Shown here: piece by piece, positions 2,648 to 8,287 of the stretch
Position numbering within the stretch: position 1 is the first letter of the stretch
How the letters are laid out: every line of letters starts with the position of its first letter
Assembly (NCBI GenBank): GCA_009784425.1
Contig: WRBR01000061.1
Coordinates: forward strand, 1 to 11,050
Source: Coriobacteriia bacterium
GTDB taxonomy: Bacteria > Actinomycetota > Coriobacteriia > Coriobacteriales > UBA8131
DNA: 11,050 bases
Reading direction: 5' to 3'
Program-made: the position numbers and the translations under genes
Notes under the pieces: generated by a model
What the model was told of the DNA's origin: nothing
The model's database searches: none
What the model saw: only the letters and a program-made list of their open reading frames with translations

Positions 2648-2757
2648 GACAGGGGGACGGTTCTTCTGTCTCAGAGACAGAAGAACCGTCCCCCTGTCTC
2701 AGAGACAGAAGAACCGTCCCCCTGTCTCAGAGACAGAAGAACCGTCCCCCTGTCAGG
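2648..2757. repeat. Tandem palindromic repeat array. One left arm, GACAGGGGGACGGTTCTTCTGTCTC, is followed by three head-to-tail copies of the 28-nt unit AGAGACAGAAGAACCGTCCCCCTGTCTC. Every copy can pair with the left arm.
   Basis: Read directly from the sequence. The unit is the perfect reverse complement of the left arm around an A centre. The copies are contiguous with no spacers. Confidence 0.9.
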
Positions 2758-2817
2758 TTCTGTAGAGACCCTTTTCCTGAGCCTCAAGCCTCACTTACCC
2801 AGTTGCCGCCATGCTCT

Positions 2818-2955
2818 GACACAAATCCGAGAGTTCCTGCCGCGTTTGCACGCAAAAGTACGATTTTCAGCCTATTATTAGTGGAAAATGGGTGTTCAAA
2901 GGTCAAAAATCGTACTTTTGCGTGCAAACGCGGCAGGAACTCTCGGATTTGTGTC
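2818..2955. repeat. A 138-bp perfect hairpin. The 50-bp inverted repeats (GACACAAATCCGAGAGTTCCTGCCGCGTTTGCACGCAAAAGTACGATTTT and its exact reverse complement) are separated by a loop of about 38 bp. It looks like a MITE or a recombination site.
   Basis: Left arm 2818-2867 and right arm 2906-2955 are exact reverse complements (50/50) on direct reading. The loop 2868-2905 is AT-rich. Confidence 0.9.
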
Positions 2956-2966
2956 ACTGAGCGCTG

Positions 2967-2997
2967 CCACCACCTAATCGCCGGAAGCTTCTTGTGC
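2967..2997. terminator. GC-rich stem-loop (12-bp stem ATCGCCGGAAGC / GCTTCCGGCGAT, loop TTCTTGT) immediately 3' of the SPFH gene. It is a possible transcript-end structure with no clear U-tract.
   Basis: A perfect 12-bp inverted repeat lies about 15 bp beyond the stop codon of the minus-strand gene that ends at 3012. There is no T-run on either side, so intrinsic-terminator status is uncertain. Confidence 0.35.
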
Positions 2998-3011
2998 TTC
3001 CGGCGATGCGT

Positions 3012-4106
3012 CTACTTTGAGCTCATGATTTCTCTGAGCTCTCCCAGGAGGTTTCCGCCACTTACTGAGATGGTTCCCACCTTGTCGCAGATCCTTTCCA
3101 GGTATTCAAGTTCCTTGAGCTTGTACAGCGTGGTGTTCTCCTCCATGAGTCGTGCCGTGTTGAGCAGACTTCTGGTTGAGGCAACCTCTTCACGACGGGA
3201 GATGACATTGGCCTGAGCGTTCTTCTCGGCCACCAAAACGGTGTTCATGATGTCACGGATTTCTCCGGGCAAGATGATGTCCTTGAGGCCTGCGTCGGAA
3301 AACTCAACGAACAGGGCGTTTTGCTTTGCCTGGAGCTGCTTCAAGACAAAGGCCGCAATGGAATCCTTTTGCTCAAGCAACTCGTCAAAACGAAAGCGGC
3401 CGATATACTCGCGCAGCGCGAGCTGGGTTGTTGCGTAGACCTGGCTCTTGTAGTCATTGATCTCGCTGATGACCTTGAGTGCGTCAACCACCCGATAGGT
3501 GCAGACAAAGTTAATACGGAGAGAAACCTTGTCGGCAGTGAGAATCTCCTGCCCCGCGATGTCCAGTTGCTGAGCACGCAGGTCAACCCTGAGAACAGAG
3601 ATCTTCTGCAGGTTGAGCCAGAAGTTATAGACACCGCTCTTGAGCATGCGCACAAACTGTCCATCCACGTACAGCAAGCCTGCTTCGCCTTCTGCCACCT
3701 CGTAGCTGCGATACAGGTGGCGGGGTACTGCCATCAGCTGCTCGGCAGTTAGTCCGCCAAGCTCCGCTTCCGTGGTGTTGATGAGCTTGAAGCTCTGCTC
3801 ACGAAAGCAGTTCCAGTAGCAGTAGGTGCCAGGGTACAAGTCGTCGACGATACGACCGTCCTCAGTACGCAGGGCGATGTGGCCGTCAGGCACGTCAATG
3901 CGGGTGACGCTCCGCGCAAACGCCTCGTCTCGCAAAAGAACGGCGATGTCTACGTTGGGGAGCGCAACAGGATGTGCAACATTTACCTTTACGCAGCTCT
4001 CGCCAAACCTCGTTGCCACTCTGTGCTTGCCGGGCAAGAGCAGCTTACGATACGTTCCGTTCTTGAAGAGAAATCCTCTCTCGTTTTCATTGATTACTGT
4101 TTTCAT
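3012..4106 (-). CDS. SPFH/band-7 (stomatin/prohibitin/flotillin/HflKC) domain protein. It is atypical: there is no N-terminal membrane helix, and the N-terminal beta-segment of the SPFH fold appears duplicated.
   Basis: The C-terminal 200 aa (KVSLRINFVCTYRVVDALKVISEI ... VLVAEKNAQANVISRREEVASTRSLLNTARL ... coiled-coil) match the SPFH core. The N-terminus, MKTVINENERGFLFKNGTYRKLLLPGKHRV, resembles the usual SPFH start, and a second copy of the same motif, GLLYVDGQFVRMLKSGVYNFW...VDLRAQQLDIAGQEILTADKV, follows about 150 aa later. The start was chosen at ATG 4106 (rc) because AGAGG sits 5 nt upstream. The track ORF extends to 4322 with no RBS, and its extra 72 aa have no SPFH counterpart. Confidence 0.75.
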   Translation of the reverse strand: MKTVINENERGFLFKNGTYRKLLLPGKHRVATRFGESCVKVNVAHPVALPNVDIAVLLRDEAFARSVTRIDVPDGHIALRTEDGRIVDDLYPGTYCYWNCFREQSFKLINTTEAELGGLTAEQLMAVPRHLYRSYEVAEGEAGLLYVDGQFVRMLKSGVYNFWLNLQKISVLRVDLRAQQLDIAGQEILTADKVSLRINFVCTYRVVDALKVISEINDYKSQVYATTQLALREYIGRFRFDELLEQKDSIAAFVLKQLQAKQNALFVEFSDAGLKDIILPGEIRDIMNTVLVAEKNAQANVISRREEVASTRSLLNTARLMEENTTLYKLKELEYLERICDKVGTISVSGGNLLGELREIMSSK

Positions 4107-7452: not shown

Positions 7453-7539
7453 CCCAATAAGCCACAAATTGGGGCGATGGCCCAAAATAATCGCATCACA
7501 GCAGATAGAATAAGAGGCACTTTATTTGGAAACAAGGCT

Positions 7540-7597
7540 TGAATCTATATCTATTGTGATATAGAATAGCCATATCAAAAATGATATAGGAGAAACG
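7540..7597 (+). promoter_or_regulatory. Promoter and operator region of the higBA-like operon. Two short palindromes (CTATATC-TATTGT-GATATAG and CATATC-AAAAAT-GATATAG) lie upstream of a strong RBS (TAGGAGAAACG-ATG).
   Basis: The inverted repeats were read from the sequence. Type II antitoxins with HTH domains classically autoregulate by binding such palindromes. Confidence 0.5.
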
Positions 7598-7957
7598 ATG
7601 TTCCACTTGGAGTTCTACGAAACCGAAGACGGCAAGAGACCAGTGGAAGAGTTCATGATAAGCCTGGAGAACAAGATGCGCAGCAAGGCAATTCGTGAGC
7701 TGATGCTACTGAGAGAGAAAGGGAATTCACTGAGAGAGCCATTTTCGAAGGCAATGGGTGATGGCATCTTTGAGCTAAGGGTTCAGCAGGGAAAGAATGA
7801 CACAAGGATTTTCTATTTCTTCTTTATTGGGGCAAAGGTTGTACTGACGAATGGTTTTATCAAGAAAACTCAAAGGACACCACCAGAAGAACTGCAACGA
7901 GCGAAGAGGTATAAAGATGACTACGAGCAGAGACAGAAAAACAGACGATCTAGATAG
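7598..7957 (+). CDS. higB: Type II toxin, HigB-like / Gp49 (DUF891) RelE-fold mRNA interferase
   Basis: The motif FYETEDGKRPVEEF...DGIFELRV...RIFYFF..GAKVVLTNGFIKKTQRTPPEEL matches the phage Gp49/HigB-2 family. It is followed by an XRE-HTH partner, in toxin-first HigBA order. Confidence 0.8.
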   Translation: MFHLEFYETEDGKRPVEEFMISLENKMRSKAIRELMLLREKGNSLREPFSKAMGDGIFELRVQQGKNDTRIFYFFFIGAKVVLTNGFIKKTQRTPPEELQRAKRYKDDYEQRQKNRRSR

Positions 7958-8213
7958 ATTCCTGGACGAGCAGTTGAAGAATCCCAGCTTTGCCGAGGAA
8001 TGGGAGCGCTCCAAGCCAGAGTACGAAGTCATGAAACTGCTAGTAGAGGCTCGCTCGGAAATGGGTATGAGTCAAAGCGAGCTTGCTCGCCGCACCGGAA
8101 TCAAACAGCCAAACATCAGTCGCCTGGAGCGAGGAGTTTGCAGCCCAACACTTGACACGCTTGCAGCACTAGCGCATGGACTCGGTAAAAAGCTGCAAGT
8201 CAGCTTTATTTGA
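7917..8213 (+). CDS. higA: Type II antitoxin, HigA-like, XRE/Cro-C1 HTH DNA-binding protein
   Basis: The HTH_3 motif is MSQSELARRTGIKQPNISRLERGVCSPTLDTLAALAHGLG. The start was chosen at ATG 7917 (MTTSRDRK...) with AGAGG 8 nt upstream. It overlaps the toxin 3' end by 41 nt. The track ORF starts earlier at 7851, inside the toxin. Confidence 0.8.
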   Translation: MTTSRDRKTDDLDRFLDEQLKNPSFAEEWERSKPEYEVMKLLVEARSEMGMSQSELARRTGIKQPNISRLERGVCSPTLDTLAALAHGLGKKLQVSFI

Positions 8214-8242
8214 GCCAGCTATAAAGAATGGCGACAGGGGAA

Positions 8243-8287
8243 CGGTTCTTCTGTCTCAGAGACAGAAGAACCGTCCCCCTGTCTCGA
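8243..8287. repeat. Single full copy of the same 51-bp palindrome seen at 2648-2757 (left arm GACAGGGGAACGGTTCTTCTGTCTC, AGA, right arm GACAGAAGAACCGTCCCCCTGTC), with 1 mismatch to the array copy
   Basis: Direct comparison with 2648-2700 shows identity except G to A in the G-run. Confidence 0.9.

Follow-up and report, generated by a model that had tools for sequence, protein, structure and literature searches.

What does a palindrome that occurs twice within a few kilobases of a bacterial genome signify, the edges of a mobile block of genes or two members of a dispersed repeat family? The question is raised by an 11,050-nt stretch of DNA (positions 1 to 11,050 of contig WRBR01000061.1, assembly GCA_009784425.1), referred to below as the window, which comes from a metagenome-assembled genome (MAG) of a Coriobacteriia bacterium from termite gut. 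A preliminary description of the window had proposed that the two palindromic sites could delimit a 5.6-kb accessory cassette. The analysis described here leads, with good confidence, to a different answer, namely that both sites belong to a family of short, non-coding, hairpin-forming repeats of the repetitive extragenic palindromic (REP) or REPIN type, and in other genomes this family is linked to a gene for a Y1 transposase.

The repeat unit and its copies in the window

Both sites are built from a 27-nt unit, GAGACAGAAGAACCGTCCCCCTGTCTC, which has the form GAGACAG-AAGAACCGTCCCC-CTGTCTC. What was overlooked when the palindromes were first described is that every 27-nt arm forms a small hairpin of its own, in which a 7-bp stem (GAGACAG/CTGTCTC) closes a loop of 13 nt; folding of the unit gave this same structure. 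A search of the window for GAGACAGAAGAACCGTCCCCCTGTCTC with up to 3 mismatches returned six copies, and the control set of 200 dinucleotide-preserving shuffles gave a mean of 0.00 matches, hence none is expected by chance. At the left site, an inverted unit (rcU, 2646-2672, minus strand, 0 mismatches, its reverse complement being GAGACAGAAGAACCGTCCCCCTGTCTC) and a direct unit (U1, 2674-2700, plus strand, 0 mismatches) form a perfect head-to-head doublet across a single A at position 2673. This doublet is followed by a tandem reiteration with a period of 28 nt (U2, 2702-2728, plus strand, 0 mismatches) and by a third direct unit (U3, 2730-2756, plus strand, 2 mismatches) that ends in CTGTCAG instead of CTGTCTC. 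The right site is also a head-to-head doublet, consisting of an inverted unit (8231-8257, minus strand, 2 mismatches, GCGACAGGGGAACGG...) and a direct unit (8259-8285, plus strand, 0 mismatches) on the two sides of a single A at 8258.

Neighbouring units in the window are separated by single A residues, therefore each site reads as a palindrome of about 51-55 bp, and this 1-nt spacer represents the minimal form of the family. The perfect 51-nt palindrome reported at the left site is confirmed at 2648-2698, as is its composition of one inverted and three direct arms with a period of 28. The right copy indeed carries one mismatch within the 51 nt (GGGGGA to GGGGAA), as had been reported, but its coordinates are 8233-8283 and not 8243-8287. 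Folding as single-stranded DNA yielded -45.3 kcal/mol (z = -9.6) for the array at 2640-2762 and -25.5 kcal/mol (z = -7.4) for the right doublet.

The left site is polymorphic in copy number. The 1+3 array is present in the window and in a longer version of the locus (L123), which represent two assemblies, whereas three fetched loci from two further assemblies (L120/L124 and L121) have a 1+1 array with identical flanks. A clean indel of 56 nt (two units) distinguishes the two forms, and the 691-nt intergenic region around it is otherwise 100% identical; U2 is missing from the assemblies behind L120/L124 and L121, and the variant end of U3 (CTGTCAG) is kept in the 1+1 alleles. The occurrence of 1+1 rather than 1+3 between 100% identical flanks supports the earlier suggestion that the array expands by whole units.

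A dispersed hairpin family and its link to Y1 transposase genes

When one genome per species was searched for exact matches to the 21-nt core of the unit, ACAGAAGAACCGTCCCCCTGT, it was found in more than 119 stretches from about 78 species-level genomes (among the matches listed). The carriers among these matches include many Clostridia, eight Bacilli, five Coriobacteriia and one Porphyromonadaceae MAG, and finished isolate chromosomes are represented as well, for example those of Virgibacillus flavescens (CP192260) and Aneurinibacillus (CP116887). The Porphyromonadaceae (Bacteroidota) copy, an exact core that occurs once at 3810-3830 of a 4-kb contig (L044), is the only match outside Bacillota and Coriobacteriia among the matches listed, and it could be a binning contaminant or the result of horizontal transfer. 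Some genomes carry the repeat in many copies, with at least eight loci in one Clostridia MAG and up to 10 copies in 8 kb at some loci. The core has no match in 2.9 million viral contigs, and the 55-nt doublet has none among plasmid or phage records.

The copies are mainly intergenic or located at the edges of open reading frames (ORFs), and their orientation with respect to the flanking genes is unbiased (++ 25, -- 28, +- 15, -+ 13). All-against-all clustering of the neighbouring ORFs from 119 loci revealed only generic ABC, kinase and MCP families as recurrent neighbours. The proposal that the palindromes mark cassette boundaries is therefore unsupported, given an intergenic repeat that is dispersed over this many species and has no recurrent neighbouring gene. 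The preliminary description had itself named scattered intergenic copies unassociated with cargo as the observation that would speak against a cassette, and this is essentially what is seen at the level of the family.

Exact copies of the full 27-mer are present in 28 metagenome contigs, nearly all of them from termite gut. Two of these contigs (L140 and L153), which derive from the same sample and GC class as the window, carry the exact unit beside ordinary genes: in L140 an abutted doublet lies 18 nt past the stop codon of a WG-repeat gene, and in L153 a 1+2 array with two 10-nt stutters directly follows the stop of a major facilitator superfamily (MFS) transporter gene. L140 also contains a diverged second unit, GGTACAG-TAACCCCGTCCCT-CTGTACC, at 240-268, 25 nt from the canonical doublet, which suggests that more than one unit subfamily exists within one organism. 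An Rfam scan of the window assigned the unit to no curated family and gave only spurious microRNA-precursor matches to the long hairpin, and a literature search by 11-mers of the unit retrieved nothing relevant.

Alignment of 141 units demonstrates that the bases outside the fixed ACAG/CTGT segments co-vary. The first outer pair is of the Watson-Crick type in 132 of the 141 units (61 expected), the second in 108 (78 expected) and the third in 89 (54 expected), which indicates that the conserved object is a 7-8 bp stem closed by a 13-nt loop. The outer bases of the stem are typical of each genome, and the loop, AAGAACCGTCCCC, is almost invariant. The layout of the units follows a strict rule, as the pairs less than 150 nt apart comprise 78 head-to-head (-+), 55 tandem and no tail-to-tail (+-) arrangements. 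In the doublets, which are the usual form in which units are encountered, the cores are offset by 25-133 nt from start to start, with spacers of 1 to about 100 nt, and such a succession of inverted unit, spacer and direct unit can fold as one long hairpin. Furthermore, 30 of 136 units are followed within 45 nt by a further copy of their 3' arm (CTGTnnn), with periods of 8-28 nt, and the left array of the window is the full-unit case of this stutter (period 28).

The earlier remark that the palindromes resemble REP elements or bacterial interspersed mosaic elements (BIMEs) is borne out by the hairpin unit, the inverted doublets and the linkage to Y1 genes described below, with the difference that the canonical GT[AG]G foot is missing; neither GTAG nor GTGG was found as a foot tetranucleotide in the window units or in the 141 aligned units. 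It had also been stated, correctly, that the palindrome is not a terminator, as no real T-run follows either site, and the matches of a terminator scan that lie inside the array are followed by GGTTCTTCTG or TTCTTCTGTC, which are T-rich stretches of the repeat itself and not a run of T. Likewise, the array is not a CRISPR, in agreement with the first description, since its units abut with a single A between them and the window holds no cas genes.

The only recurrent specific partner of the repeat is a gene for a HUH-type Y1 transposase. It was encountered in three motif-selected loci (L068, L080 and L115) that form a 3-locus neighbour cluster, in which a unit lies 3-6 nt after the stop codon of the gene, and in L115 an inverted unit is also present about 50 nt upstream of it. 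Ten further independent homologues (41-65% identical), fetched from the protein side, all have units within 120 nt of the gene, most commonly an inverted unit 51-88 nt upstream together with a direct unit 8-23 nt downstream. Copies of the unit hence flank the Y1 gene in 13 of 13 loci, usually head-to-head, with an inverted unit 51-88 nt before the start codon in 10 of the 13 and a direct unit 3-23 nt after the stop codon in seven, and 119 nt after it in an eighth (L169). This is the same head-to-head geometry as that of the doublets without a gene.

The Y1 protein is about 252 residues long and matches Pfam Y1_Tnp with E = 5e-11 to 6e-13. It scores 72-75 bits against the NCBIfam model of the REP-associated tyrosine transposase (RAYT), just below the cut-off of 80, and its best match in the PDB is the remote 4ER8 (E. 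coli TnpA-REP; E = 0.0016). The catalytic core is 40% identical to two published members of the terminal inverted repeat-associated tyrosine transposases (TIRYTs), dau2153 (E = 4e-35), which we take to be from the Firmicute Desulforudis audaxviator, and pca3049 (E = 2e-32). The motifs NH[IV]H, FQDRF, YIHQNP and WSS can be recognized by eye, and a C-terminal extension of about 100 residues is present, in which a helix-turn-helix (HTH) is indicated by sub-threshold Pfam matches only. Judged by its sequence, the partner protein is assigned to the TIRYT type, which corresponds to RAYT group 1 (Bertels et al. 2017, PMC5581495) and has been equated with TnpA-Y1 subclass 2.1 (Quentin et al. 2018, PMC6006769). 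The family is large, with 6428 matches in one database (E <= 1e-10) and 1312 clusters at 50% identity in another (E <= 1e-30).

Variants of the unit follow the lineage of the Y1 protein, as observed at L170 and L171, a hint of co-evolution between repeat and enzyme of the kind seen in classical REP-RAYT pairs. At L171 the loop variant CCGACCCC flanks its own Y1 gene on both sides; the units of this locus, at 123-210 and 1051-1062, display the loop GAGAACCGACCCC on either side of the gene. At L170, a locus from termite gut with a GC content of 0.52, the unit variant AAAGGACCGTCCC is located at 150-190. L170 came up, along with two other contigs, when a Coriobacteriia Y1 gene was sought among the GC-rich-looking representatives, and it was rejected as the partner gene of the present host on the grounds that its unit variant differs.

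The surroundings of the two sites

The left end of the window holds a GNAT fragment and a DUF1653 gene, followed by genes for an ABC-2 permease and an ATPase (826-2393, minus strand) and by the left repeat array (2646-2756). At 2817-2956, 60 nt from the array, two 51-nt arms and a loop of 38 nt make up a perfect hairpin of 140 nt, the sequence of which is unrelated to the unit. The window shares this hairpin in identical form with four further fetched loci from three other assemblies, and none of the remaining fetched loci was found to have it. The block between the two sites continues with the gene of an SPFH protein (3012-4322, minus strand), an 815-nt non-coding gap (4323-5137), genes for two WYL proteins (5138-7452, plus strand) and genes for a Gp49/HigB-like protein and an HTH protein (7598-8213, plus strand), after which the right repeat doublet is reached (8231-8285). 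This gene content, an SPFH gene, a WYL pair and a HigBA-like pair, is as first described, and a PADLOC run on the proteins of the block gave only generic WYL, HTH and Gp49-like matches and no defined defence system.

The block had also been said to contain tRNA-like debris, and two separate features have to be distinguished here. Within the block, the non-coding gap between the SPFH gene and the two WYL-domain genes harbours a tRNA-like module (4480-4538, minus strand) with a partial match to the Rfam family YrlA (Y RNA-like; 30.6 bits, E = 1.7e-4 in an 821-nt search). It is a permuted module composed of a T arm, a closed acceptor-like hairpin and a D arm, and it may represent a gene for a Y-RNA-like RNA in unusual surroundings; the window contains no Ro/Rsr (TROVE) gene. 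Outside the block lies the 3' two-thirds of a tRNA-Met(CAU) (8346-8402, minus strand), recognized by a partial Rfam tRNA match that covers the anticodon and T arms, and a terminator hairpin with a T-run that belongs to it can be read from the sequence at about 8320-8345 (minus strand). ARAGORN called no intact tRNA at this site.

The tRNA-Met fragment is followed by genes for a tyrosine integrase (8589-9860) and an excisionase-like HTH_17 protein (9987-10385), and the region continues at 8874-17737 of the longer version of the locus, L123, with PIN, NikA-like, relaxase, MutH, Dcm methylase and Vsr genes. Taken together, the tRNA-Met fragment, the integrase, the HTH_17 protein and the downstream genes indicate that the integrase belongs to an integrative mobilisable element in tRNA-Met(CAU). 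The tRNA-Met fragment does not belong to the repeat but represents the displaced half of the attachment site of this integrase-bearing element to the right, and the right palindrome is situated on the chromosomal side of the tRNA-Met junction.

Origin of the doublets and their relation to known systems

Since the same head-to-head pair of units encloses the Y1 gene in other genomes, the doublets of the window have the appearance of derivatives of a TIRYT-type Y1 element that lack the gene. A catalytic activity and a single-stranded substrate can be proposed for the enzyme on the basis of the established biochemistry of IS200/IS605 TnpA and E. coli TnpA-REP, of which PMC6006769 also gives a summary. 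By this analogy, the transposase would bind the hairpin of the unit on single-stranded DNA, and it would cut and rejoin the DNA in a manner that seeds doublets at new intergenic sites. The outer units might multiply or vanish afterwards by slippage or by repeated cleavage and joining, which could have produced the 1+3 array of the left site. On this reading the two sites of the window are independent insertions, and the 5.6 kb between them is whatever happens to lie between two repeats. A broader proposal, which we regard as evenly balanced between right and wrong, is that the hairpin is the missing repeat partner of the largest 'REP-less' RAYT-like class (TnpA-Y1 subclass 2.1, group 1 or TIRYT). 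The repeats and their enzyme would thereby constitute a REPIN-like system across Bacillota and Coriobacteriia, in which the near-invariant 13-nt loop rather than a GTAG foot is recognized, and the gene-less doublets would be direct deletion derivatives.

The element is most similar to the TIRtrons, in which TIRYT genes are flanked by inverted repeats that share the motif GGGGWSAS and in some cases make up families of moderate abundance, with dimers and clusters (Di Nocera, De Gregorio and Rocco 2013, PMC3733652). The similarity extends to the protein, with its 40% identical core, TIRYT motifs and C-terminal extension, as well as to the DNA, since the gene is enclosed by inverted copies of the repeat at a roughly fixed upstream distance and the repeat is dispersed as dimers and clusters. 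Compared with the motif consensus rather than with individual terminal inverted repeat (TIR) sequences, the G-rich strand of the unit, GGGGACGG, agrees at 7 of 8 positions with GGGGWSAS, and exact matches such as GGGGACAC occur only at stutter junctions, as in L155. Unlike the repeats of TIRtrons, however, the present unit is a discrete hairpin with an invariant loop that is nearly unchanged across Clostridia, Bacilli and Coriobacteriia, it obeys the strict head-to-head rule and it frequently stutters at its 3' end.

Canonical REP/BIME and REPIN-RAYT systems (E. coli TnpA-REP, 4ER8; Pseudomonas REPINs) have several features in common with the present family. The units are short, palindromic and intergenic, inverted pairs of them fold into long hairpins, tandem clusters occur occasionally, the HUH-Y1 gene is usually present once and has its own repeats on its flanks, and close relatives differ in copy number. 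The differences are that the present unit has no GT[AG]G (or CGTC) foot and is conserved in its loop and the top of its stem, that it is conserved across phyla and is not specific to a species or genus, and that the protein is remote from 4ER8 and below the NCBIfam equivalog cut-off. The CGTC-tagged REPs (Di Nocera 2013) were also considered, as the loop contains CGTC, and were rejected, because their CGTC is an unpaired foot, their stems have 8-9 bp, their loops have 4-5 nt and they have no transposase. IS200/IS605 elements and palindrome-associated transposable elements (PATEs) provide a further parallel, namely a Y1 HUH enzyme that recognizes hairpins at the ends and short non-autonomous derivatives that keep the hairpins only. 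In IS200/IS605, however, the two ends are different imperfect hairpins, in contrast to the same unit in inverted orientation at both ends here, and no tnpB accompanies the present Y1 element. In addition, the listed Y1 protein clusters are mostly confined to a single contig, and there is thus no sign of the multi-copy pattern of insertion sequences. On balance, the feature is filed as a variant of the REP/TIR kind of repeat and not as a canonical REP, because it lacks the GT[AG]G foot; what is unusual about it is the loop-centred conservation across phyla and the strict head-to-head rule.

Group 1 RAYTs are present in Clostridia, and the 16-mers that flank them are only modestly repeated (Bertels et al. 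2017, PMC5581495). The main text of the TIRYT study (Di Nocera 2013, PMC3733652) contains no match to 'Firmicutes' or 'Clostridi', and its TIRYT alignment does contain dau 2153, the one presumed Firmicute entry. A literature search on TIRYTs, or on Y1 genes and REPs in Bacillota, found only PMC3733652 and PMC6006769. Several points weigh against the present interpretation. In automatic and manual searches, subclass 2.1 genes were reported to be without REP-like neighbours (Quentin et al. 2018, PMC6006769), a conflict that would be avoided if these Gram-positive proteins are not true members of subclass 2.1, which may be the case. Furthermore, tblastn and profile HMM searches detected no Y1 gene in the window, nor in the termite-gut contigs with the exact unit (about 0.2 Mb), and over the fetched genome loci, Coriobacteriia included, they returned only the Y1 loci already known. 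The Y1 locus from termite gut, L170, carries a different variant of the unit, and the copy number in the host stands at no more than a lower bound of at least 4 loci (the two window sites, L140 and L153). We infer both the mobility of the units and the presence of such a transposase in the host, and assembly collapse could in principle account for the difference between the 1+3 and 1+1 arrays.

Among the other explanations, the one proposed initially is that the two sites bound a mobile or hotspot cassette, and that recombination or transposition between them moves the SPFH-WYL-HigBA block. In its composite-element form, this explanation builds on the outermost units, the inverted one at 2646-2672 and the direct one at 8259-8285, which have the head-to-head geometry that surrounds the Y1 gene elsewhere. 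The outermost units are indeed oriented like those that flank Y1 genes, the cargo, with a toxin-antitoxin pair, WYL regulators and a tRNA-like RNA, looks accessory, and the block adjoins a tRNA integration hotspot. However, each site is a doublet, so any two sites in a genome would exhibit the same geometry, and there are 94 cases in which a fetched locus of 8-14 kb contains a second site, the median gap being 1.3 kb, which renders two sites 5.5 kb apart unremarkable. Other copies, such as those from the same sample in L140 and L153, flank ordinary genes, and the whole block is present in all five fetched versions of the locus, between which the 56-nt indel is the sole difference. Moreover, no recombinase is tied to the palindromes, as the window contains only the integrase (8589-9860), whose counterpart is the tRNA-Met fragment, and the absence of the core from the viral contigs and of the doublet from the plasmid and phage collections also speaks against mobility of this kind. 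We therefore judge a cassette bounded by the two sites to be very unlikely, and the same low probability applies to the mobilization of the intervening DNA by the two doublets as a composite element.

Alternatively, the units might be cis-acting elements of the host that are kept for a cellular function, either as 3' RNA hairpins that stabilise or terminate transcripts or as targets of a conserved protein that binds DNA or RNA, with mobility being past or irrelevant. The invariance of the 13-nt loop across classes while the stems drift suggests sequence-specific recognition, many copies lie just past stop codons or terminators, and secondary roles of this kind are known for classical REPs (Di Nocera 2013, PMC3733652). 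Yet the lack of a strand bias relative to the flanking genes argues against a purely RNA-level role, no T-run is present, the sole recurrent specific partner is a Y1 gene that is itself enclosed by units in 13 of 13 loci, and both copy number and arrangement differ between near-identical assemblies; on this evidence a host function is an improbable explanation of the family. That the palindromes are artefacts, arising from assembly fold-back or adapter-derived sequence, is a thought prompted by the metagenomic source of the assembly and by the stem GAGACAG, which we take to be identical to the final 7 nt of the Tn5 mosaic end. The remainder of that mosaic end is missing, though, the same sites recur in independent ENA and JGI assemblies, both are located mid-contig and the core is present in finished isolate chromosomes, which reduces this explanation to a practically negligible one. 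The placement of both sites in a REP/REPIN-type family of dispersed hairpins thus remains the reading that we prefer.

To conclude, annotators should treat the palindromes of the window as dispersed REP-type repeats. For the window itself they represent ordinary repeat DNA, and the SPFH-WYL-HigBA block is not demonstrated to be a repeat-bounded mobile cassette. To our knowledge, REP/REPIN-RAYT systems have been described almost wholly in Proteobacteria and Cyanobacteria, and the link of the family to a transposase class reported to be REP-less is of moderate interest in this respect. It concerns a hairpin with a loop that is invariant across phyla and that is consistently associated with this class in Gram-positive bacteria. 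The unit offers a concrete DNA substrate for testing the role of single-copy Y1 transposases, as well as a simple sequence tag by which repeats of this kind can be located in Clostridia, Bacilli and Coriobacteriia.

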